Below are positions 1 through 10,141 of a stretch of DNA of 10,141 bases, piece by piece. This DNA is from a virus (taxonomy: Duplodnaviria; Heunggongvirae; Uroviricota; Caudoviricetes): the IMG/VR virus record IMGVR_UViG_2693429748_000016. The stretch is one strand, 5' to 3'. Under the pieces are notes generated by a model. The model was not told the origin of the DNA. It saw nothing but the letters and a program-made list of their open reading frames with translations, and ran no database searches. The stretch's first letter is position 1, and every line of letters begins with the position of its first letter. The position numbers were made by a program, and so were the translations under genes.

Positions 1-1
1 A

Positions 2-220
2 AGTCATCGGGCATTATCTGAACATAAAACACTACCAATAAGTTGGAGTCATTACCAAACGGTTGAAATGTATGCCGCTACTTACGGGTCCTGTAATCCT
101 CTGAATAAACCAGAGGGAAAAGATGATTTCGACAAAATTTACCGCTTCTTGGAGGACCGCTATATCAAAAGCTTAGAGGACGCAGGGATCAAATCCCCAG
201 TGAAGTCACCATTGTCCTGA
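2..220 (+). CDS. 3' end of an unidentified protein-coding gene (partial, continues beyond window start)
   Basis: Frame 2 is open from position 2 to TGA at 218-220 (72 codons without a stop). All three minus-strand frames across 1-188 contain stops. No motif recognised. Overlaps the 3' end of the convergent minus-strand gene by about 30 bp. Confidence 0.3.
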   Translation, partial: SHRALSEHKTLPISWSHYQTVEMYAATYGSCNPLNKPEGKDDFDKIYRFLEDRYIKSLEDAGIKSPVKSPLS

Positions 221-554
221 GAACTTGCAGAACGTCATGATCATAACTTCCATCCAAACCGCGACGGCGAATTGCTTCTCGTATTACCGGAAGCAGTTCG
301 CTGGAAATCTCGGTGCATATTTCACCTGATAATACGCTTGGCTCAAGTGAGAATATTGGTGAACTTACGGTCTTGGTCTCGACAGTTTCAGAGTCAGTGC
401 CAACATTATAAAGCTCAACGAAAGCGGTCTTGATTTTCCGGGCCAGATCTTTTGCTGGCTCGCTTGCAATATCTTTCCCGATTTCTCGCAGCACAGAATG
501 CAATGTATGAGCTGCTGTTTTCTGTACATCAGACGGTAAATCTTTAAATTCCAT
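189..554 (-). CDS. hypothetical protein (about 121 aa), acidic, helix-rich appearance
   Basis: ORF track 189..566 (-). The internal ATG at 554 is preceded by GAGG with a 6-nt spacer, so 554 is the preferred start; the ATG at 566 overlaps the stop of the upstream ORF (ATGA) and is the alternative. No recognisable family. Confidence 0.5.
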   Translation of the reverse strand: MEFKDLPSDVQKTAAHTLHSVLREIGKDIASEPAKDLARKIKTAFVELYNVGTDSETVETKTVSSPIFSLEPSVLSGEICTEISSELLPVIREAIRRRGLDGSYDHDVLQVLRTMVTSLGI

Positions 555-565
555 CGTCAGCCTCA

Positions 566-772
566 TCAGTCAGTGTTTCTGGCTAACCAGCAACGCGCGC
601 CAGATTCGGTTTTAAACGTTTTGCTTTTGGTATACGTCATGGCGGTAAACGTTCCATCCTGGTTAGGGAACACGCCGCACACCAGAGATTCGTTGTTGCC
701 AAGATCGATAGTATCCATGCTGACCTCATTTCCCCTTAACGCCGGGGTGGCGGAACAAAAAACCTGCTGCAT
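566..772 (-). CDS. hypothetical small protein (68 aa)
   Basis: ORF track 566..772 (-). Stop overlaps the downstream start candidate (ATGA arrangement), consistent with a leftward operon leaving the immunity region. Weak RBS. An overlapping plus-strand ORF (573..785) is the alternative reading. Confidence 0.35.
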   Translation of the reverse strand: MQQVFCSATPALRGNEVSMDTIDLGNNESLVCGVFPNQDGTFTAMTYTKSKTFKTESGARCWLARNTD

Positions 773-899
773 AGTTAAAGATTGAACCCTGCCGTCATGT
801 TCTTACGCCTCGGGCTGGCTACTTAACCCCTGACCACTGTCTGGTAACTCGAAGTATTGCCCTGCATTCTGTGGGGCGGGGTGGGTTGACGCCTGAAAC

Positions 900-941
900 A
901 ATAGCATCATTATTTTTTTTGATGTAAATAGCATCGCTATT
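900..941. promoter_or_regulatory. pair of operator-like palindromes (OL-like) downstream of the repressor/TA operon
   Basis: ATAGCATCATTAT at 901-913 and the perfect-armed palindrome AATAGC-ATC-GCTATT at 927-941 (arms ATAGC/GCTAT, 3-bp spacer). Centres are about 27 bp apart. The same 13-bp motif family recurs at 2039-2076. Confidence 0.4.
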
Positions 942-956
942 GTTTTTTGTTGGGGC

Positions 957-981
957 AAGAAAAAACCACCCTAAGGTGGTT
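957..981 (-). terminator. intrinsic terminator for the leftward repressor-antitoxin-toxin operon
   Basis: 7-bp stem AACCACC/GGTGGTT (964-970 and 975-981) with loop CTAA. On the minus-strand transcript the hairpin is followed by UUUUUCUUG (complement of the A-run at 957-963). Lies 17 bp beyond the parE stop at 998. Confidence 0.45.
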
Positions 982-997
982 CTGTCGGCGGGAATAA

Positions 998-1288
998 TTA
1001 ACTGTTTTTGCCTGGATACTGTCTTCGAGAATGCACAATATTTACTACTTCTATGCTTGATGCTGTTACTCGGTAAAGGATGATGTAGTTAGGATGAGTT
1101 ACAATTTCACGAAGACCAAGAACTCGCTCGCTTGGAGGATACAGGTAAGGATGCTCTGTGAGCGGCAAAACGGATGTTTCAATTCGAATTTTCATTCTGC
1201 GTGCTGCCGCGGGATTTTCTTTAGCTATGTAGGCTACGATCTGGCGCAAATCATCACGAGCAGATGGTAGCCATAAAACGGGTAACAT
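998..1288 (-). CDS. parE: ParE-family type II toxin (RelE/ParE superfamily), 96 aa
   Basis: Size and sequence are typical of ParE toxins (N-terminal MLPVLWLPSARDDL, C-terminal PNYIILYRV...VVNIVHSRRQYP). Start overlaps the stop of the upstream antitoxin gene (ATGA at 1288). From memory it resembles ParE2 of the E. coli paaR2-paaA2-parE2 module; not verified by alignment. Confidence 0.85.
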   Translation of the reverse strand: MLPVLWLPSARDDLRQIVAYIAKENPAAARRMKIRIETSVLPLTEHPYLYPPSERVLGLREIVTHPNYIILYRVTASSIEVVNIVHSRRQYPGKNS

Positions 1289-1482
1289 TATTCACCTCTG
1301 TGAGTTGCAGCAGCAATTTGGGCAATAATTTGTTCCATTTCCGCCATTACCTCATCATGCGGAATCGCCGGGCGGGGATCCGCGAGGCTTGCTGCTACTT
1401 TGGCCCGCAGCCATTCGTTGTAACTATTTTCTTGCTCAACTGTCTCAAATTCTGAAACCATTGGGGAAAGGACTGTACTCAT
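1288..1482 (-). CDS. paaA: small antitoxin, PaaA-like (64 aa), partner of ParE
   Basis: 64-aa acidic protein immediately upstream of and overlapping parE. GGAG lies 10 nt upstream of the ATG at 1482. Motif SPMVSEFETVEQENSYNEWLRAKVAASLADPRPAIPHDEV matches my recollection of PaaA2-type antitoxins. Gene context (regulator-antitoxin-ParE) supports the call. Confidence 0.75.
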   Translation of the reverse strand: MSTVLSPMVSEFETVEQENSYNEWLRAKVAASLADPRPAIPHDEVMAEMEQIIAQIAAATHRGE

Positions 1483-1501
1483 TTTACATATCTCCTCTGA
1501 T

Positions 1502-2002
1502 TTAGGCGCGACGGCCTTTTTGTGCAGCTAACCACCGCGCAACCGTACGATCCATTGATTCTTTTTTATCTTTCATCTCCTGAAGCATGTGTTCTTGATC
1601 TTCTTTCGGAAAAGCTCTGAACGTATGGATTAAATCTCGTTCCATCGGCTCTACGGCAAACGGTAGTTCATCCTCTGTTTGTTCTGTGTCTGCTGGTAAT
1701 GCGACTATGTTATCTTGCTGTGGTTCTCGACAATACATCCTTGCAATTTGCAGCAAATCTACCATGTCTGGCCTGATTGACTCAGGGGGAACTTTCAGTA
1801 AGCCAGCAAACTTTAGAACAGCCTCAAGGTTTAGTGGGGTTTGACCATTTAGGTAGTGACTTACCGCCCCTTGTGTTGAAAACCCCATAATTTCCGCCGC
1901 ACGTTCCTGAGTCAATCCCAACTGAGATTTCTTTGCCATCCAGATTTCTTTCAGTCTTCTGGCGGCGTTGAGGTCGGTGTCTGACAATGATTTTCTTTTC
2001 AT
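1502..2002 (-). CDS. CI-like HTH (XRE-family) repressor, PaaR-like; likely prophage immunity repressor
   Basis: ORF track 1502..2032 begins at a GTG; the first ATG (MKRKSLSDTDL..., at 2002) is the more plausible start. N-terminal HTH segment LTQERAAEIMGFSTQGAVSHYLNG. Transcribed divergently from the Cro-like gene across an operator-bearing intergenic region. First gene of the repressor-paaA-parE operon. No Ser/Lys S24 peptidase motif recognised in the C-terminal half. Confidence 0.75.
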   Translation of the reverse strand: MKRKSLSDTDLNAARRLKEIWMAKKSQLGLTQERAAEIMGFSTQGAVSHYLNGQTPLNLEAVLKFAGLLKVPPESIRPDMVDLLQIARMYCREPQQDNIVALPADTEQTEDELPFAVEPMERDLIHTFRAFPKEDQEHMLQEMKDKKESMDRTVARWLAAQKGRRA

Positions 2003-2037
2003 ACATCCAATTCTAATAAGATTGCTAATCACTTTGA

Positions 2038-2079
2038 AATAGCATCACTATTTACTTTTAAAAATAACAGTGCTATTAA
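2038..2079. promoter_or_regulatory. OR-like operator pair overlapping a candidate rightward early promoter
   Basis: AATAGCATCACTATT at 2038-2052 and ATAACAGTGCTAT at 2064-2076, same motif family as 901-941, centres about 25 bp apart. Candidate promoter TTTACT (2051-2056), 17-nt spacer, TATTAA (2074-2079), which would start transcription just upstream of the Cro-like gene. Confidence 0.45.
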
Positions 2080-2113
2080 TTATGCATTGGTAACACATCA
2101 CATAGGGCGGATT

Positions 2114-2377
2114 ATGAATCTTGGAGAATATTTGCATCATTTTCATATAACCCAGAGTTCATTTGCTGAGATTGTTGGCGCATCCCAAGGGATGGTCAGC
2201 CACGTTATAACGGGGCGTGCAAAACTTACAGGAGAAAAAATATTACGTTGGTGTGAAGCAACGGGATGGGTGGTGACCCCACATGAGATTGACAGTAAAA
2301 CCTACCCCAACCCAACTGACGGCTTGCCTGCTGAGTTTCAGGCTAACACACAACCATCGGCGGGGGTTGATTCATGA
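2114..2377 (+). CDS. Cro/YdaS-like HTH DNA-binding protein (87 aa from ATG 2114; 96 aa if started at 2087)
   Basis: HTH-like segment QSSFAEIVGASQGMVSHVITGRAKLTGEKILRW. First gene of the rightward operon, divergent from the repressor. Stop overlaps the next gene's start (ATGA at 2374-2377). Start choice between 2087 and 2114 is unresolved. Confidence 0.65.
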   Translation: MNLGEYLHHFHITQSSFAEIVGASQGMVSHVITGRAKLTGEKILRWCEATGWVVTPHEIDSKTYPNPTDGLPAEFQANTQPSAGVDS

Positions 2378-2799
2378 AAATCAAGCATGAACACATCCGC
2401 ATGGCGATGAAAGCCTGGGCGCATCCGGACGGTGAAAAAGTTCCGGCAGCTGAAATAACCAGGGTTTATTTCGAACTGGGAATGACGTTTCCGGTTCTGC
2501 ATAACGACAGCAAGCACAACACGCTTTATCTCAACACCCAAAAGATTTTCCGTTGGCTGGATAAAGACACCCCTGACGCTGTTGAAAAAATTCAGGCGTT
2601 GTTACCTGCGATCGAAAGGGCAATGCCACCTCCGCTGGTGGCTCGAATGCGCAGCCACAGTTCAGCTTATTTTCGGGAACTGGTGGAGACGCATGAACGA
2701 CTGGTGAGAGACGCTGATGATTTTGTCGCAGTGGCAATCGCCGGTTTCAATCAGATGAACCGTGGTGGCCCGGCAGGAAATGCTGTGGCAGTACATTGA
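2374..2799 (+). CDS. YdaT-like protein (141 aa), second gene of the rightward early operon
   Basis: Begins MKIKHEHIRMAMKAW. Position and size match the second gene of Rac-type ydaS-ydaT pairs. Family assignment is from gene order and recollection, not alignment. Confidence 0.6.
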   Translation: MKIKHEHIRMAMKAWAHPDGEKVPAAEITRVYFELGMTFPVLHNDSKHNTLYLNTQKIFRWLDKDTPDAVEKIQALLPAIERAMPPPLVARMRSHSSAYFRELVETHERLVRDADDFVAVAIAGFNQMNRGGPAGNAVAVH

Positions 2800-2870
2800 C
2801 TGACAATAGCCATATCGAATCGCTCCCGGCAACTCGTGAGTAAAAAGATTCGGTATCAGAAGAGGTGAGT

Positions 2871-3935
2871 ATGGCTAACGCCTGGCTCAGATTATGGCAT
2901 GACATGCCAAATGACCCTAAGTGGCGAACAATTGCCAGGGTGTCAGGGCAGCCAATTGCAACAGTGATGGCAGTGTATATCCACCTCCTGGTGAGCGCGT
3001 CACGAAATGTCACGCGAGGTCACATTGATGTCACGACAGAAGATTTGGCAAGTGCGCTCGACGTGACAGAAGAGGTAATTGATTCAATTTTGCAGACGAT
3101 GCAGGGGCGGGTACTTGATGGTGATTTAATCACTGGATGGGAAAAACGCCAGGTGCTTAAAGAGGACAACGGCAATATTTCGCAAACCGCAAAATCTCCT
3201 GCAGAGCGCAAGAGGGCGCAGCGAGAGAGGGAAAGAAAGCGGGAACAAAATGGCGATTGTCACGGCGCGTCACGAAATGTCACGCACATGTCACGACGAG
3301 TCACGACAGATACAGATAAAGATACAGATAAAGAAGATCAAAACACTATGGTCCATGGCGTAAAAAACGCCACGAACCAGGCAGGGGATGTTCAGACCGT
3401 CAATCCTGGTCAGCCAGCAGGCTCGACACCGGAAGCCGATTCAGCGTATGCGCTGAAAGCCGATTCGGGCGCTGTGCAGCAGGTGATGACCGCAAGGCCG
3501 GAGCAATCACTCCAACTGCAGCAGCCTGAAGCCGATTCCGCCATTCAGCGGGAAGCCGATCGGGTAGCCCCGGAAAACACCGGGCAGCCTGTGGGACGAG
3601 TGGATTATCCGGATGTGTTCGAACAGGTCTGGCGGGAATACCCGTTGCGTGCCGGGGCAAACCCGAAGAAATCCGCATTCAGTGCCTGGAAGGCCAGATT
3701 GCGCGAGGGGGTGCCACCAGAGACCATGCTGGATGGTGTGAGGCGTTACGCGAGATACCTGGCGGCGACCGGGAAAGCGGGAACGGAATTTGTTCAGCGA
3801 GCGACGACGTTTTTTGGGCCGGACCGGAATTTTGAAAACCCCTGGTTGCTCCCGGTAAGCGGCACGAACAACCAGCGTTGTGTGAATCATATTTCTGAAC
3901 CGGATACCGAAATTCCGCCGGGATTCAGGGGGTGA
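2871..3935 (+). CDS. phage replication initiator / replisome organiser (O-like, YdaU-like), about 354 aa
   Basis: ATG at 2871 with GAGG 5 nt upstream (ORF track begins at GTG 2865). C-terminal region (YPDVFEQVWREYPLRAGANPKKSAFSAWKARL...FENPW) resembles the conserved C-terminal domain of phage replication proteins. Lies immediately upstream of a DnaC-like loader. Carries internal iteron arrays. Confidence 0.85.
   Translation: MANAWLRLWHDMPNDPKWRTIARVSGQPIATVMAVYIHLLVSASRNVTRGHIDVTTEDLASALDVTEEVIDSILQTMQGRVLDGDLITGWEKRQVLKEDNGNISQTAKSPAERKRAQRERERKREQNGDCHGASRNVTHMSRRVTTDTDKDTDKEDQNTMVHGVKNATNQAGDVQTVNPGQPAGSTPEADSAYALKADSGAVQQVMTARPEQSLQLQQPEADSAIQREADRVAPENTGQPVGRVDYPDVFEQVWREYPLRAGANPKKSAFSAWKARLREGVPPETMLDGVRRYARYLAATGKAGTEFVQRATTFFGPDRNFENPWLLPVSGTNNQRCVNHISEPDTEIPPGFRG
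2995..3040. repeat. iteron block 1 (putative origin element) inside the replication gene
   Basis: TCACG copies at 3000, 3010 and 3031 (roughly 10-11 bp phasing). The 21-mer GCGCGTCACGAAATGTCACGC (2995-3015) recurs exactly at 3265-3285. Confidence 0.55.
3259..3334. repeat. iteron block 2 plus tandem 12-mer (putative origin core) inside the replication gene
   Basis: TCACG copies at 3260, 3270, 3280, 3291 and 3301 (spacing 10, 10, 11, 10 bp), followed by TACAGATAAAGA x2 (3311-3334) and an A-rich stretch. Resembles the lambda arrangement of an origin embedded in the O gene. Confidence 0.55.
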
Positions 3936-3941
3936 TGTGGC

Positions 3942-4688
3942 ATGAAAAACATTGCGGCAGCCGGGGTTCTTGAACGTATTCACAGACTTGCACCACAGGG
4001 GGCGGTTCCACCGTACCGGACGGTGGAGGAGTGGCGGGAATGGCAACTTGCTGAAGGACGAAAACGCAGCGAGGAGATTAACCGCCAGAATCGCCAGTTG
4101 CGGGTGGAAAAAATCCTGAATCGTTCGGGCATCCAGCCTCTGCACAGCAAATGCTCGTTTGCGAATTATCAGGTGCAGAACGACGGGCAAAAATACGCGC
4201 TGAGCCAGGCCAAATCCATAGCTGACGAACTGATGACCGGGTGCACGAATTTTGTGTTCAGCGGTAAAACCGGCACCGGGAAAAATCACCTTGCAGCGGC
4301 GATGGGTAACCGGCTGATGGCGAAGGGGCGCAGCGTGATTATCGTCACCGAGTCTGATGTCATGAGCGTGTTGCATGACAGCTACGACAACGGCAAATCC
4401 GGTGAAAAATTTTTACAGGAGCTTTGCGGGGTTGATTTGCTGGTCCTGGATGAAATAGGCATTCAGCGGGAGACGAAAAACGAGCAGGTGGTATTGCACC
4501 AGATAATTGATCGCCGGACAGCATCACTGTGCAGTGTCGGGATGTTAACAAACCTGAATCATGCCGCAATGAGCACGCTTCTTGGTGAGAGGATTATGGA
4601 CCGCATGACCATGAACGGTTGTCGGTGGGTGACGTTTAACTGGGATAGCTGGCGTTCAAATGTCAGCTTTCCGGGAGTTGTGAAGTAA
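3942..4688 (+). CDS. DnaC-like replicative helicase loader (AAA+ ATPase), 248 aa
   Basis: Walker A GKTGTGKNHLAAAMG, Walker B LLVLDEIG, and C-terminal LLGERIMDRM...WVTFNWDSWR closely paralleling E. coli DnaC. Starts 7 nt after the replication gene stop. Confidence 0.92.
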   Translation: MKNIAAAGVLERIHRLAPQGAVPPYRTVEEWREWQLAEGRKRSEEINRQNRQLRVEKILNRSGIQPLHSKCSFANYQVQNDGQKYALSQAKSIADELMTGCTNFVFSGKTGTGKNHLAAAMGNRLMAKGRSVIIVTESDVMSVLHDSYDNGKSGEKFLQELCGVDLLVLDEIGIQRETKNEQVVLHQIIDRRTASLCSVGMLTNLNHAAMSTLLGERIMDRMTMNGCRWVTFNWDSWRSNVSFPGVVK

Positions 4689-4706
4689 TTTTTGTTGGAG
4701 GATGTT

Positions 4707-5435
4707 TTAATGGAAACTGTATTTGACGCACTGAAAGCACTGAAAAGAGCCTCTTCACATGTGGTGGCGTCCCGCCTTGGAATCAGCCGTGAAGATGCGG
4801 TCAACGAACTGTGGAAACTGAAGCGCCGTGGTGAAGCGGATAACAAGGGTTCGATGTGGTGGCTGATTCAGGCTGGTGAAAGTGAACCAGTGTCACCGGT
4901 ACCGAAAGTGACAGCGCAAATGCTGACTGAGGCGATTGAACAACATGGCCCACAAACGGCGGATGAGCTGGCACTGATGTTCGGGATTACCTCCCGCCGG
5001 GCGAATTCATCGCTGGCCATGGCAATCAGCAAAGGGCGTCTGATTCGCGTGAATCAGGGCGGTAAATTTCGGTACTGCATACCGGGCGCTGATTTACCGG
5101 CAGAGCCGAAAGCCGCATCCATAGCGGAAACGGATGGTAAAGTCTTTCCTCAGCCAGCAGGTGTTGCGTTACCGGTACAGGAAGCTGCAACACAGGAAGA
5201 AATTAAAACAGAAACTGTGGCGGACATTGTGCAGTCGTTGCCATCGTTCACCGAAACGCAAGCGGATGACCTGGTTTTACCATCGCTGCATATGGCAAAC
5301 CGCGAACTGCGTCGGGCGAAAAGTCATGTCCAGAAGTGGGAGCGTGTCTGCGCCGCGTTGCGGGAGCTGAACAAGCACCGGGATATTGTTCGACAGATTG
5401 TCGATTCCTCCGGTCGTATTGTGTCGGAAAAGTGA
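4707..5435 (+). CDS. hypothetical phage protein (about 243 aa)
   Basis: ORF track 4692..5435 begins at a TTG; the ATG at 4707 has GGAGGA 6 nt upstream. Follows the DnaC-like gene in the same operon. No catalytic motif recognised. Confidence 0.6.
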
Positions 5436-5450
5436 TTGCCGGGGGCGCTT

Positions 5451-5816
5451 ATGGCAAAAGTATTTACACAGGAAGAGCGGGAAAAAATTAAGGGGCAGGT
5501 TGTTGAACTCGTACGCCAGAGTGGGCGCGAGACGTTACGACAACTGGAAGCTAAAACCGGGGCGACAAGATATTTAATAAGCGTTCTCGCCAGAGAGCTG
5601 GTTGCCAGTGGGGATGTATACAACTCTGGCTACGGGTTATTCCCGTCTGAACAGGCTCGTAAGGACTGGCAAAACGCCCGCAAAAAACTCTCGAGGGCAA
5701 AGCTGAAGAAACCATCTGTGGTTGATCCGGACCTTATCTGGTCATTACCAGACGGAGAAATACGCCGCTACGAAGTACCGGCTTTCTATCAGGGTGATTT
5801 TCAGGAACCGTTCTGA
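5451..5816 (+). CDS. hypothetical phage protein (about 121 aa); 3' end fused to an IS-derived segment
   Basis: ATG at 5451 (ORF track begins at TTG 5436). A diverged second copy of most of this gene lies at 5930-6319. The last codons (..QEPF stop) fall within the sequence attributed to the IS remnant. Confidence 0.55.
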   Translation: MAKVFTQEEREKIKGQVVELVRQSGRETLRQLEAKTGATRYLISVLARELVASGDVYNSGYGLFPSEQARKDWQNARKKLSRAKLKKPSVVDPDLIWSLPDGEIRRYEVPAFYQGDFQEPF

Positions 5817-5929
5817 CAGCTTCGGCTTTGAACTCTTTAGAGTAACGTTGGGTTTTTCTGCTCATTATTAGCTCCTTCTGATGCCATTCTATTTCAGGAA
5901 GGAGTGTCCGTTAAACTCAGGCTACCTCA
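5806..5929 (-). mobile_element. remnant of an IS3-family insertion sequence (left end plus first ~20 codons of orfA), IS600-like
   Basis: The minus strand reads TGAGGTAGCC... from 5929 (typical IS3-family terminus), then AAGGAGCTAATA-ATG and MSRKTQRYSKEFKAEAVRTV (ATG at 5865). I recall this as the IS600-type OrfA N-terminus; unverified. The element breaks off after about 20 codons. Confidence 0.5.
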
Positions 5930-6319
5930 AAAATTAAAGGGCAGGTTGTTGAACTTGTACGTCTGAGCGGTCGCGAGACGTTGCGGCAACTGGAAGCCAA
6001 GACAGGTGCGACAAGATATCTGATGAGTGTTCTCGCCAGAGAGCTGGTTGCCAGTGGCGATGTATACAACTCTGGTTACGGGTTATTCCCGTCTGAACAG
6101 GCGCGTAAGGACTGGCAAAACGCCCGCAAAAAACTCTCAAGGGCAAATCTGAAGAAACCATCTGTGGTTGATCCTGACCTTATCTGGTCATTACCAGACG
6201 GAGAAATACGCCGCTACGACAGGCGTCAAAACATAATCTGTAGCGAGTGCCGGAAGAGTGAAGTTATGCAGCGTGTACCGGCTTTCTATCAGGGTGATTT
6301 TCAGGAGGCGGTACTGTGA
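5930..6319 (+). pseudogene. N-terminally truncated, diverged second copy of the 5451..5816 gene
   Basis: 5930-6230 aligns with 5483-5790 at roughly 93% identity by eye. Homology begins exactly at the IS terminus, so the copy lacks about the first 10 codons and its start. ORF track 5981..6319 starts at an internal ATG. Carries an extra 56-bp segment near the 3' end relative to copy A. Confidence 0.5.
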
Positions 6320-6440
6320 GTGAAATTAGCTATCAAATAATCTGTCGCGAGTGCCGGAAGAGCGAAGCTATGCAGCGTGTACTGGCTTTCTATCAGGGTA
6401 ATTTTCAGGAGGCGATACTGTGAATGAAATTAGCTATCAG
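6233..6440. repeat. 104-bp tandem direct repeat (2 units, about 92% identical)
   Basis: Unit 1 is 6233-6336 and unit 2 is 6337-6440, with 8 mismatches out of 104. Each unit contains the gene 3' end (..CxECRKSExMQRVxAFYQGxFQEAxL), a TGA stop, and an abutting start codon (GTG in unit 1, ATG in unit 2). Confidence 0.75.
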
Positions 6441-6837
6441 GCTTCAATTACCGCTGGCATTCGCATCAAAGGAGAGGAGCATGGAAATAAAACCAGAAGA
6501 TGAGTTAAGCAATATTGTTTTATTTCCGGTAAAAGAGGATAACCCTCGTAATCAGGTTAATTTTCTTTATGAGCCATCGGAAAGACCATATTGCCATCAC
6601 GCTTCTGTCCGGGTTGACGAAAAAGAGCGTCAGGTCCGCTGTAAAATTTGCGGTGCAGTTGTGGAGCCATTTGACTGGATGCTCTCTGTGGCGAAAAGAG
6701 AAACCAGACTGGCAGATGATGTAAGGCTCTTGCGCCAGGAGGAGCGGGAAAGGCGAAAAAATATAGAAAAGCTAATCCAGATTGAGCGTAATGCGAAAGC
6801 GCGGATACGCAGGGTGACAAAATATAGCCCCGAATAA
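6424..6837 (+). CDS. hypothetical protein with Cys/His cluster (zinc-ribbon-like) and basic coiled-coil tail
   Basis: ORF track 6424..6837. ATG 6424 directly abuts the TGA of the preceding repeat unit (TGAATG); the alternative ATG at 6481 has AGGAG 6 nt upstream. Contains CHH...CKIC and a C-terminal charged, heptad-like segment. Confidence 0.55.
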   Translation: MKLAIRLQLPLAFASKERSMEIKPEDELSNIVLFPVKEDNPRNQVNFLYEPSERPYCHHASVRVDEKERQVRCKICGAVVEPFDWMLSVAKRETRLADDVRLLRQEERERRKNIEKLIQIERNAKARIRRVTKYSPE

Positions 6838-7051
6838 TCAAGGTTATTTCTGGAAGTCAAGTCGTGAGTGATGAGGACTAACAAATACGGTGAACTCGAT
6901 AAAGAGATTCAGGACGAACTGGAGGCCAGGAATGATTGACAAATCACCAAGTGAGTTCAGCTACAAAGATTTATTGTCATAACGGGTTATGAGATCGACT
7001 TGGTGCGTGATATTCTTCGGGCCAGTTTGCTATGCGCCACCATGAGATGTT

Positions 7052-8884
7052 ATGGCCCGCATGTTTGATACATTAGGATTTTACATTATGAATGTGCAAC
7101 ATTTTGATTTTTTTACAGATAATGAGTTTTCTAATCTGGAAAGATATCAAACTTGTAAAGCCATGGCCAAAGGTTATGCGGGCAATTACAAAACCGGGCA
7201 GTCAAGGTTGATGCATGCCCGCTCATACTGCTTCAGCATCGTAGCTGCATATTGGGATACCCTTGCAAAAAAGCAAAAAAGCAGCATTAAAATGAGGGCA
7301 GTACCGCACACTGTTTACATAGAAGACATTCCATGTGATGCACGCGAGCTCGCTGAACGAACAGGTGAGCTTATTGCTCAATTTCCGGCGGAGGACGCTG
7401 GATATCTGATTGGGTCAATTTATACGGTAATGCTGCCATCCGCTTACCGTTCGGAATTGGGGGCTTACTATACCCCCCCACCTTTGGTAGCGCGTCTCTT
7501 GGACCTGGCTGAAAAGTCTGGTGTTGATTTTTCTCATGCATCGGTTATTGATCCTGCGTGTGGTGGCGGTGCATTTTTGGCACCAGTAGCCATTCGAATG
7601 TTAAAAAAAGACAAGGGGTCTTCCCCTGAATGGATGTTGAGGAGAATCAGTCGTCGTTTAAAGGGGATAGAAATCGATCCATTTGCGGCTTGGATGAGTT
7701 TGGTATTGCTCGAATCTGTACTAATGCCACTATGTGTAAAGGTAAAACGTAGATTGCCTGAAGATACAATTATTGTTGCTGATGCGCTTCAGCAAGATAA
7801 ATTTTCTGGTTATGATCTTGTGGTAGGGAATCCGCCTTACGGACGTGTCACTCTCGATATTAAAACGAGAGAAAAATATTCTCGTTCGTTATTTGGTCAT
7901 GCAAATCTATATGGATTGTTCACCGACTTAGCTGTTCGCATGGTTAAAGAGAAAACAGGAGTTATTGCATTTCTTACGCCAACTTCTTTTCTTGGTGGGC
8001 AGTATTTCACCGCGCTGCGAACCCTTTTGACCGAAAAAACTACTCCGTATGCCCTTGATTTCGTCACTGACAGGGATGGGGTCTTTGACGATGTTCTCCA
8101 GGAAACAATGTTGACAGCATTCAAGGCGGGAGAACATAAAGTTCGGGCCCAGGTATCCTCACTTGTCCCTAAGGGGTTGAACAAAGCAAAAATTGAGAAA
8201 ATAGGTAATGTTGATATAGAAAAAGGTGGAGCAACGTGGCTTTTGCCACGCGTTAAAGATGATGCCTGTTTTCTTAATGTATTAAAACAGATGTCTACGC
8301 GTTTAGCTGATCTGGGATACTCAGTCTCTACAGGTCAGTTAGTCTGGAATCGATTTAAGTCGCAGTTGCGTACGACGAAAGGAAAAAATAGCTACCCATT
8401 AGTCTGGGCGGAATCAATAACTTCAGCTGGTTTTCGTTTTAGTGCAGACAGAAAAAATCATGTTCCCTATATCGATATAACCCCACAACAGGGTTTCCTT
8501 GTGACAAAATCTGAATGTGTGCTTGTTCAGCGGACAACATCGAAGGAACAGGACAGAAGGATTTTAGCGGCAATTTTACCTCAGGGATTTATAGATGAAA
8601 CTGGTGGCGTAGTAGTTGAAAACCATATTAATATTGTATATTCAAACGGATTGTTCTCTGCGGTTCGCCCTGATGTTATTGATATGCTACTTAATTCGCA
8701 TGTTGTCGATCGGGCGTTCAGGTGTATAAGCGGAAGTGTTGCTGTTTCGGCCTATGAATTGAATTCAATCCCGTTGCCTTCTCTGGAGCAGGTGATGGAG
8801 ATTCAATCGTTAATTGATGCTGGCGTCCACAGACGGATTATTGAGAGAACTATCGCTGGTTTCTATGGAGTGATGATTGCATGA
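7052..8884 (+). CDS. gamma-class N6-adenine DNA methyltransferase (Eco57I/TaqI-like), 610 aa
   Basis: Motifs in gamma-class order: YYTPPPLV (about 7466-7489), SAM-binding VIDPACGGGAFL (about 7544-7579), catalytic VVGNPPYG (about 7819-7842), with a long C-terminal region consistent with a target-recognition domain. Alternative starts at 7061 and 7088. Visibly lower GC than the phage replication genes. Confidence 0.88.
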   Translation: MARMFDTLGFYIMNVQHFDFFTDNEFSNLERYQTCKAMAKGYAGNYKTGQSRLMHARSYCFSIVAAYWDTLAKKQKSSIKMRAVPHTVYIEDIPCDARELAERTGELIAQFPAEDAGYLIGSIYTVMLPSAYRSELGAYYTPPPLVARLLDLAEKSGVDFSHASVIDPACGGGAFLAPVAIRMLKKDKGSSPEWMLRRISRRLKGIEIDPFAAWMSLVLLESVLMPLCVKVKRRLPEDTIIVADALQQDKFSGYDLVVGNPPYGRVTLDIKTREKYSRSLFGHANLYGLFTDLAVRMVKEKTGVIAFLTPTSFLGGQYFTALRTLLTEKTTPYALDFVTDRDGVFDDVLQETMLTAFKAGEHKVRAQVSSLVPKGLNKAKIEKIGNVDIEKGGATWLLPRVKDDACFLNVLKQMSTRLADLGYSVSTGQLVWNRFKSQLRTTKGKNSYPLVWAESITSAGFRFSADRKNHVPYIDITPQQGFLVTKSECVLVQRTTSKEQDRRILAAILPQGFIDETGGVVVENHINIVYSNGLFSAVRPDVIDMLLNSHVVDRAFRCISGSVAVSAYELNSIPLPSLEQVMEIQSLIDAGVHRRIIERTIAGFYGVMIA

Positions 8885-9963
8885 ATCTGCCTGTTGTTCC
8901 CCCATTGAATGTTATCCGGGAAAGATTACAATTAATTTTCCCTGAAGGGACTGAGAATCGTGGATATTTAATTCGGGAAATAGCTGCAAAAACAATTTTT
9001 GTCATGTTTTATGCTGGTGCGGTTGAGGGGCTGGGGCGATGGATAAGGCCCAGCCAGGTTGTAAGTATGGGAGATTCGCAGGCTGCTCTTACTGATGATG
9101 CGTCCAGAGAAAGCTGGGTAAAGATGACTTTCTCTAAACAAAAGATAAGGCCTGCTGATGCATGGTATGCGGAAAATACGCGTGAGCCAATACGTGATGA
9201 AACTATAAAAAATGGCCTAATACCTTGCAATGCAATTGTTGAGCGTAAAGGTATACCCACCACATCCTCTCGTCCTCGTTACAGTTTGAATCGCTCTTTT
9301 GCAGCACTCTTTGATGCCGGGCTTGAAGGAGATTCGCTGCTGAGTGCAATAAGTTCCTGGCAAGAAAATCATTTGAACAAAGCCGCTCTTGCTAGGTTGC
9401 GTTTATTGAAATCAGGGGCAGTGATTGCTGCTGATGCCGTAGTCGTCACTTTCCCAAATGGAGAGAAGAGAACTTTAGCTCCGGGCCCGTCAAGTACAAT
9501 AGCTAAGGCCGTCATCGAAGTTTTTGCTCCTAATTTTCTTAAGAATCCAACTGTGCTCTGGTTGTCTGAATCCGGGAATAAAGTTGTTGCTCAGGATGAT
9601 GTATTGGCAAAAGCATTGGGGCTGAATATTGATGCCTCAAAAGCACTTCCAGATATTATTTTGATTGATTTGGGAGAGGACCGAACGGGTTCGGACATGC
9701 TTGTAGTTTTCACTGAAGTAGTTGCGACAGATGGGCCTATAAACAGGGAACGAAAAGTTACTCTCACTCATTTGGCTATTGACGCTGGGTTCAGCGAGAA
9801 AAATCTTGCATTCCTTACGGCATTTATGGACAGAAGTGCTCTGCCTTTTAAAAAGGCAATACCAGAATTGGCGTGGGGATCTTATGCATGGTTTGCTTCT
9901 GAACCGGAGCACTTAATTGATCTTCGGGATGGTTATCCGGTAAAGATCAGCCAGAGAAAATGA
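8881..9963 (+). CDS. putative type II restriction endonuclease (possibly BsuBI/PstI family), 360 aa
   Basis: Start overlaps the methyltransferase stop (ATGA at 8881-8884), with GGAG upstream. Same AT-rich composition. Size and M-then-R gene order match BsuBI-type systems as I remember them. No nuclease motif confidently identified by eye. Confidence 0.6.
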   Translation: MNLPVVPPLNVIRERLQLIFPEGTENRGYLIREIAAKTIFVMFYAGAVEGLGRWIRPSQVVSMGDSQAALTDDASRESWVKMTFSKQKIRPADAWYAENTREPIRDETIKNGLIPCNAIVERKGIPTTSSRPRYSLNRSFAALFDAGLEGDSLLSAISSWQENHLNKAALARLRLLKSGAVIAADAVVVTFPNGEKRTLAPGPSSTIAKAVIEVFAPNFLKNPTVLWLSESGNKVVAQDDVLAKALGLNIDASKALPDIILIDLGEDRTGSDMLVVFTEVVATDGPINRERKVTLTHLAIDAGFSEKNLAFLTAFMDRSALPFKKAIPELAWGSYAWFASEPEHLIDLRDGYPVKISQRK

Positions 9964-10003
9964 CCAAAGTTTGATATCCGCCACGCCCTGAAGGATGGGG
10001 GTT

Positions 10004-10138
10004 TTACGGTGCACTGGATAAAAAATCGGTTTCATAGATTTGCCCACCGTGGTATACGCCTGCGATAAAAACTTTATTGTCATCAACGGCAAAAGCAATA
10101 ATTGTTCTGTGGCGGGGTGATGCTGCCAACTTACTGAT
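10004..10138 (-). pseudogene. possible remnant of a RelE/ParE-like toxin gene (C-terminal fragment only)
   Basis: Minus-strand frame reads ..RTIIAFAVDDNKVFIAGVYHGGQIYE.. ending at TAA (10004-10006), a pattern reminiscent of RelE/ParE C-termini. The frame is closed by an in-frame TAA at 10139-10141 and has no ATG, so it is either a fragment, a frameshifted gene, or chance. Confidence 0.2.
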
Positions 10139-10141
10139 TTA

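Follow-up and report, generated by a model that had tools for sequence, protein, structure and literature searches.

In a defective prophage of the Shigella sonnei type, the gene for a DUF977 protein is present as a cluster of partial copies with a remnant of the insertion sequence IS600 between them. The analyzed DNA, a stretch of 10,141 nucleotides ("the window"), contains a copy A and a copy B of this gene in tandem, followed by a third fragment. Clearly foreign DNA amounts to 436 bp and consists of the IS600 stub together with 313 nt from a different DUF977 allele. With moderate confidence, this arrangement is interpreted as the result of a microhomology-mediated switch into an IS600-disrupted paralogue, which was resolved by homologous recombination in a decaying prophage gene. 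The parts of the locus are listed below. Gene positions are counted with the ATG as 1, "resident" indicates the allele of the S. sonnei prophage itself, L006 is a single-copy S. sonnei locus used as the reference, and L003 is a locus from an ATCC 25922-type prophage.

4710 to 5435, plus strand: DUF1627 gene, directly upstream of copy A (Pfam PF07789, E = 5.9e-93), protein identical to the Shigella sonnei one
5451 to 5816, plus strand: DUF977 copy A, an open 121-aa ORF; resident allele with 55 nt lost internally and a C terminus (..QEPF*) from antisense IS600
5451 to 5773, plus strand: body of copy A, gene nt 1 to 323 of the resident S. sonnei allele, part of a block from 1 to 5773 with 99.93% identity to L006
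5774: joint J0, a lone A matching neither side; gene nt 324 to 378 (55 nt) are missing
5775 to 5806, plus strand: tail of copy A, 32 nt, gene nt 379 to 410, resident type
5795 to 5806: microhomology at joint J1, TGATTTTCAGGA, identical at 11 of 12 positions to the complement of IS600 nt 124 to 135
5807 to 5929, minus strand: IS600 stub, IS600 nt 1 to 123, 100% identical to annotated IS600
5930 to 6242, plus strand: foreign part of copy B, gene nt 34 to 346 of an ATCC 25922-type DUF977 allele, 312 of 313 nt identical to L003
6243 to 6335, plus strand: resident part of copy B, gene nt 347 to 423 (stop codon at 6317 to 6319) plus 16 nt past the stop
6336: joint J3, a second lone A matching neither side
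6337 to 6423, plus strand: third partial copy, gene nt 337 to 423, with five SNPs of a third allele; the sixth, at 6424, is the first base of the next ORF
6424 to 6837, plus strand: next gene of the operon, intact, for a zinc-ribbon-like protein with a length of 137 aa, or of 118 aa with the start at 6481

The window is a stretch of an S. sonnei-type genome in which a defective Rac-like prophage is represented by its replication region, with IS1 ends on both sides. Positions 1 to 56 and about 10116 to 10141 are IS1 termini, the former matching also the far IS1 copy in L006. Because both ends of the window are located inside IS1 termini, it is almost certainly a whole short-read contig. An exact-protein look-up found the DUF1627 protein of the window in 5,498 blocks of assemblies under the name of Shigella sonnei, one matching record being CP000038, of S. 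sonnei strain Ss046, and the exact replisome-organizer protein was likewise named S. sonnei. The S. sonnei loci that were read have the same gene order as the window, with IS1 flanking both sides, and a 118-aa gene followed by the methyltransferase and BsuBI-PstI restriction pair is present 3' of the DUF977 gene. A comparison with related genomes had been proposed in the first-pass annotation of this DNA; at this site, between DUF1627 and the 118-aa gene, these S. sonnei loci carry a single, intact copy of the DUF977 gene, which encodes 140 aa, or 146 aa according to the gene call of one draft.

The module of the relatives consists of the genes for a replisome organizer and a DnaC-like ATPase, usually DUF1627, and then DUF977, so that two orders occur, ATPase-DUF977 and ATPase-DUF1627-DUF977. 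Some related prophages without DUF1627 have the DUF977 gene directly 3' of the gene for the DnaC-like ATPase (L004, positions 4718 to 5140, and L005, positions 5942 to 6364), and both orders circulate with the same downstream restriction-modification genes. Phage records label the DUF977 gene "LygF"; a literature search for a function of DUF977 or LygF found nothing. The prophage remnant in the window also carries an intact type II restriction-modification pair at 7052 to 9963, composed of a 610-aa N6_Mtase/Eco57I-type methyltransferase, identical as a protein to the S. sonnei one (3,929 assembly blocks), and a 360-aa BsuBI/PstI-family endonuclease. On the minus strand at 998 to 1482, genes for a 96-aa toxin of the ParE family and a 64-aa antitoxin of the PaaA2 type adjoin the prophage repressor region and are called as in the matching S. 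sonnei loci.

L006 is of the single-copy type present in thousands of S. sonnei assemblies and was compared base by base with the window, which is longer by 550 bp. Four blocks resulted.

Window 1 to 5773: L006 5292 to 11064, 4 mismatches
Window 5775 to 5806: L006 11120 to 11151, exact
Window 5929 to 6335: L006 10774 to 11180, 27 mismatches, all between 5938 and 6242
Window 6337 to 10141: L006 11078 to 14882, 7 mismatches

Six of the 7 mismatches in the last block are at 6363 to 6424, and the right flank from 6425 to 10141 (3,717 nt) contains the remaining one; both flanks are about 99.9% identical to L006. In gene positions, the order of the segments is resident 1 to 323, the orphan A at 5774, resident 379 to 410, IS600 nt 123 to 1, foreign 34 to 346, resident 347 to 439, the orphan A at 6336, third allele 337 to 424, and common downstream sequence.

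The remnant on the minus strand had been assigned to the IS3 family in the first-pass annotation, and it could be identified as IS600. Window positions 5929 down to 5805 are nt 1 to 125 of the annotated "IS3-like element IS600" with no mismatch (E = 1e-63). Because nt 124 and 125 are common to the IS and the gene, only nt 1 to 123 (5807 to 5929) are unambiguously IS sequence. A megablast search with a 146-nt stub query found IS600 elements in 3,061 of the 5,426 complete E. coli genomes (98.6% identity, same E value), and the only differences from one annotated IS600 copy (L001) were at one chance-matching flank base and at IS nt 126. As had been noticed, the left inverted repeat is present with the terminus TGAGGTAGCC at 5929 to 5920, which begins 5'-TG as in the IS3 family, together with a ribosome-binding site (AGGAG) 7 nt before the orfA ATG at 5865. 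The orfA remnant comprises codons 1 to 20, reads MSRKTQRYSKEFKAEAVRTV, and then continues into antisense DUF977 sequence; the resulting 43-aa chimeric orfA' ORF from 5865 to 5734 gave a weak HTH_Tnp_1 match (19.8 bits vs a cutoff of 24.1). The right inverted repeat is absent together with its flank, where the second copy of a target duplication would be expected, since the IS600 match stops at nt 123 to 135 with gene sequence beyond, no inverted repeats were found within 5200 to 6700, and neither the orfA-orfB frameshift site nor the DDE transposase is contained in the stub. A stub lacking the right end, the frameshift site, and the DDE transposase is therefore unable to transpose.

Copy A is fused with its 3' end to the broken-off stub and has its native C terminus replaced (..QEPF vs ..QEAVL in copy B), as had also been described; its final codons, ccg ttc tga, are antisense IS600. 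The body of copy A differs from L006 at one position, 5750, and the base of the window at this position is also that of other S. sonnei genomes. The 55 nt missing at J0 include nt 324 to 346 of the resident gene (CAGACATCAGAACATAATCTGTC), and the net loss is 54 nt, so that the reading frame is kept. The tail of 32 nt is identical to 6275 to 6306 (repeat family D3). Copy A matched the DUF977 profile of Pfam (PF06163) with 67.4 bits (E = 1.8e-18, cutoff 22.1) over profile positions 1 to 99 of 134. Joint J0 was present in no complete E. coli genome searched, and the exact copy A protein was absent from a collection of 15 billion proteins. Copy A may still be produced, albeit 18 residues short and with a changed C terminus.

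Copy B is a chimera of foreign and resident alleles. Its homology to the DUF977 gene starts exactly at the IS terminus, as the first-pass annotation had stated, with codon 12 at 5930 immediately at the IS end (joint J2). This part has no start codon; the first in-frame start is a TTG at 5981 without an obvious ribosome-binding site. Compared with the resident allele (L006 and L016), copy B has 27 mismatches in the first 313 nt (8.6%) and none in the following 93 nt, and compared with the foreign allele (L003), the numbers are 1 mismatch in 313 nt and then 14 in 93 nt. This places a homologous crossover from the foreign to the resident allele between 6242 and 6259 (gene nt 347 to 363), in a tract of about 92% homology. 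The C-terminal end of the protein, ..QEAVL*, is reached at 6319. Copy B matched the DUF977 profile over positions 13 to 134 with 85.3 bits, again at a cutoff of 22.1. The whole of copy B was absent from the 5,426 E. coli genomes, the best match having 97.0% nt identity, and its protein was absent among 5.8 billion protein clusters, with a best match of 94% aa identity.

The foreign allele as such is present in many E. coli. In E. coli M16807 and such strains, the allele of the type of the copy B 5' part (L003, positions 1852 to 2274) carries a pseudogene annotation and is interrupted by a stop codon, TAA vs CAA in copy B, at the position of window 6227. DUF977 alleles are mosaics themselves. 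The S. sonnei draft L024 (CXCS01000143.1) contains other DUF977 alleles, which are paralogous to the resident one and possible templates. A second S. sonnei allele of 141 aa (L024, positions 4001 to 4426, compared with L016, positions 4950 to 5372) equals the resident allele up to about nt 238, then diverges, and has different downstream genes, which is a natural mosaic breakpoint inside a DUF977 gene. At positions 2340 to 3142 of the same scaffold, N runs, a DUF977 fragment, ATPase fragments, DUF1627, and the second DUF977 allele are strung together, showing that paralogous prophage modules confuse draft assemblies in S. sonnei.

Copies A and B differ at 22 of 290 aligned nt, which is 7.6% and agrees with the divergence of about 7% that had been taken as an argument against a recent simple duplication. 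A local tandem duplication of the resident gene, with a subsequent insertion of IS600, an internal deletion in the IS, and divergence of the copies, would account for the tandem arrangement and for the reappearance of the resident-type sequence 5775 to 5806 at 6275 to 6306. However, copy B agrees in its first 313 nt with the foreign allele at 312 positions and is 8.6% off the resident one, between flanks that are 99.9% conserved. A match to a foreign allele within conserved flanks means that divergence in place cannot explain copy B. Moreover, resident nt 327 to 346 are lacking in copy A, and copy B deviates from them at four sites, so that the two-copy form cannot have given rise to the single-copy allele of S. 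sonnei; such a derivation was also considered by itself and rejected for this reason. A tandem duplication is thus regarded as very improbable.

The first-pass annotation had favored a joining of two related prophage segments. In this case, the partners, either two prophages or one prophage and a phage entering by infection, would have recombined once, out of register, at the microhomology, and the DUF977 gene of the phage contributing the right arm would have carried IS600. The 7.6% divergence of the copies, the microhomology at J1, and the mosaic nature of lambdoid and Rac-like phages, with the occurrence of both module orders, are in agreement with such a joining. On the right side of the scar, however, the same resident prophage continues, with a single mismatch in 3,717 nt from 6425, copy B reverts to the resident allele at 6243, and carriers of the foreign allele such as L003 have different downstream genes. 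To account for this, the two-arm model would require one more homologous exchange, after which it no longer differs from a patch. Since both flanks belong to one resident prophage, with 4 and 1 mismatches to L006, the foreign DNA is a patch within this prophage and not a join of two prophage arms, and this part of the earlier interpretation did not hold; a two-arm origin is considered improbable.

Downstream of copy B, a tract of 88 nt (gene nt 337 to 424) is of a third allele type, and window 6337 to 6480 is identical to the allele in L022. This third fragment is a pseudogene piece, which forms with 6233 to 6335 a 104-bp tandem repeat of 93% identity (repeat family D2). The protein encoded by the following gene gave a weak Zn_Ribbon_TF match of 21 bits, below the cutoff, and the annotated start of this gene varies among genomes between 118 and 137 aa, set by a G/A polymorphism at 6424.

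A repeat at the 3' end of a gene might be part of a functional arrangement, either a diversity-generating repeat pair or, with respect to the stub, an antisense regulator acting against copy A from an IS600 promoter. The 104-bp repeat is in the appropriate place, and the stub contains promoter-like hexamers at 5914 to 5886 and a ribosome-binding site, which are directed into copy A. Against this, the number of promoter-like sites was no higher than the chance expectation, no reverse transcriptase is encoded by the ORFs of the window or by the called genes of the matching locus, and the repeat differences (a/c, t/c, c/t, g/a) are known allele SNPs that are not adenine specific. In the collections searched, the structure is also unique to this sequence and not conserved. 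A diversity-generating retroelement was ruled out on account of the missing reverse transcriptase and the ordinary allele SNPs, and a functional arrangement of either kind is extremely improbable. The locus has no sign of a function and appears to be an ordinary recombination scar in a decaying genome region.

Evaluation of the four joints needs to consider that the window may be in part or as a whole an artefact of draft assembly. The contigs 1 to 5773, 5775 to 6335, and 6337 to 10141 would then have been scaffolded, with a single base as placeholder at each join. Neither the 55-nt loss nor the 104-bp repeat would be real, and in the extreme case, the 561-nt middle piece would originate from another prophage of the genome. 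Both window ends are located in IS1 termini as expected of a short-read contig, J0 and J3 each consist of one orphan base, an A in both cases, without microhomology, and the start of the last piece, 6337, coincides exactly with the point from which the alleles are again identical. In addition, the S. sonnei draft L024 has N runs and mixed paralogues in the same module, and thousands of S. sonnei assemblies contain one copy. On the other hand, there is no N in the window, and the 32-nt tail of copy A and the 93-nt end of copy B are of the resident type, from which the other alleles examined, including two in L024, differ in these regions. Resident-type sequence at both ends of the middle piece indicates that it belongs at this locus. 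Joints J1 and J2 are located within one uninterrupted stretch of 561 nt, and the 9 plus 2 nt shared there should be too few for a misjoin in a k-mer graph. By reasoning, no single de Bruijn k-mer size should fit the three contig ends, for which overlaps of 32, 26, and none would be needed. An artefact is considered unlikely; it would concern mainly J0 and J3, which could be untemplated 1-nt additions or one-base scaffold placeholders. The IS stub between two DUF977 sequences holds in both cases, because J1 and J2 are in one piece with resident-type ends.

Joint J1 is the one with microhomology. The short homology that had been suspected around GAAAATCA is indeed present: 5795 to 5806 is the stretch listed above with 11 of 12 matches, the letters TGATTTTCA-GA are common to the 3' end of the gene and IS600, and the single mismatch at 5804 is of the gene type. 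The IS breaks at nt 123, inside orfA of IS600, and this indicates that J1 was not made by the transposase. A transposase-mediated adjacent deletion was rejected since the IS is broken internally and not at its end, and one-ended transposition was rejected since the IS end is internal to the patch. The earlier proposal of an IS-associated deletion or recombination is accordingly correct in a loose sense, in that the IS supplied the microhomology, and incorrect with respect to an involvement of the transposase. Joints J0 (5774) and J3 (6336) have no microhomology and contain the orphan bases instead, and a homologous anchor is present on the other side of the inserted tract in the form of the switch at 6242 to 6259. 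The earlier observation as a whole is confirmed, and the earlier interpretation is partly supported; the internal 55-nt loss with its extra A and the third partial copy behind the lone A at 6336 are additions to what had been noticed.

From these features of the scar, we infer a microhomology-mediated switch that may have proceeded as follows. The donor would have been an ATCC 25922-type DUF977 allele in a paralogous prophage gene, with IS600 already inserted in codon 12. A DNA end, for instance, of a broken replication fork or a repair intermediate, would have been located at nt 410 of the resident gene and would have paired via the 11 of 12 matching positions of TGATTTTCA-GA with nt 135 to 124 of the IS600 in the donor. 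Synthesis would then have run along IS600 from nt 123 to nt 1 and onward into the donor gene, starting there at codon 12. After about 313 nt, the new strand would have returned to the resident gene by homologous pairing at nt 347 to 363. Such an event would have duplicated most of the gene, left an immobile IS stub behind, and altered the last residues of copy A. The 55-nt loss at 5774 and the 104-bp repeat at 6336 may go back to additional switches during this event or, alternatively, to joins in the draft assembly. If J0 and J3 are assembly joins, the structure is simpler, with resident 1 to 410, the stub, foreign 34 to 346, and resident 347 onward, and in this case, one microhomology joint plus one homologous crossover would suffice.

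The donor may have been present in the same genome. Five IS, among them IS600, have expanded in all Shigella, and for each of the five, the greatest recent activity was seen in S. sonnei (PMC7373316). Together with the paralogous DUF977 alleles of S. sonnei in L024, this expansion makes an intragenomic donor plausible. The same scar would be expected if an incoming phage or transduced DNA had been integrated by homology-facilitated illegitimate recombination. The order of events may also have been different, since sequential independent events would give the same sequence, and a single event would need up to four switches. If all four joints are real and have a common origin, a single nascent strand would have hopped between the resident gene, the IS600-disrupted paralogue, and a third paralogue. 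The strand would have changed its template as many as five times, once at a microhomology, twice with insertion of 1 nt, and once or twice through homology. Such a history of the locus is considered unlikely; if true, it would provide a natural case of serial template switching in a bacterium, among prophage copies residing together.

The joints and the putative donor were also searched for elsewhere. No place covering 80% of a query that spans the IS joints J1 and J2 was found in the 5,426 complete E. coli genomes, and a candidate that looked like an extension of a joint (H56) was rejected because it was IS600 beside lysis genes. Exact 26- and 28-mers of J2 (GGCTACCTCAAAAATTAAAGGGCAGG) and J1 (GGTGATTTTCAGGAACCGTTCTGACAGC) had zero matches in species-representative genomes and in viral and metagenome contigs. 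A donor with a full IS600 at codon 12 of the foreign allele was likewise not found in the complete E. coli genomes, the species-representative genomes, or the viral and metagenome contigs, which were the collections searched by DNA. On the protein level, the alleles retrieved by a homology search with copy B had at most 94% identity, and an IS-disrupted donor was not among them. The exact-protein look-up had no record of copy A with either start, of copy B with two starts, of the chimeric orfA' ORF, or of an antisense ORF crossing J2; the assembly from which the window comes is therefore not contained in that collection, and a carrier of J2 did not emerge.

For annotation, the region from 5451 to 6423 is best treated not as several genes but as a single DUF977 locus that has decayed and contains a remnant of IS600. 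The locus illustrates how IS debris and paralogous prophage genes yield clusters of pseudogenes in Shigella, and it may be used as a worked example of how a joint at a microhomology and a homologous crossover can occur together. The structure, if real, could serve as a strain-specific marker. No new system is revealed; events of this kind are well known, and the present case matters little beyond annotation.

Comparison with known systems places the stub, the scar, and the prophage into familiar categories. A full IS600 has a length of about 1.26 kb. The stub shares with this member of the IS3 family the left inverted repeat, the ribosome-binding site, the orfA start, and the identity of the first 123 to 125 nt; it differs in that only about 10% of the element is left and in that the break is internal and not made by the transposase. 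The scar as such resembles the products of microhomology-mediated break-induced replication or template switching (Hastings et al. 2009) and of homology-facilitated illegitimate recombination (de Vries and Wackernagel 2002). The likeness is in the imperfect joint with 11 of 12 matches, the resolution of the other side in a long homologous tract, the ectopic insert with a local duplication, and perhaps the 1-nt insertions at further joints. A difference is that the mechanism is here deduced from the scar alone. Furthermore, homology-facilitated integration usually deletes recipient DNA, whereas a duplication is present here. The Rac-like and lambdoid prophage mosaics have the same replication module, decayed genes, and mosaic DUF977 alleles, and the Rac prophage of E. 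coli K-12 carries the ydaW pseudogene at the corresponding position of this module. In those mosaics, whole modules are swapped, whereas in the window, the joint is located inside a gene and partial tandem copies of two or three alleles have been brought together.
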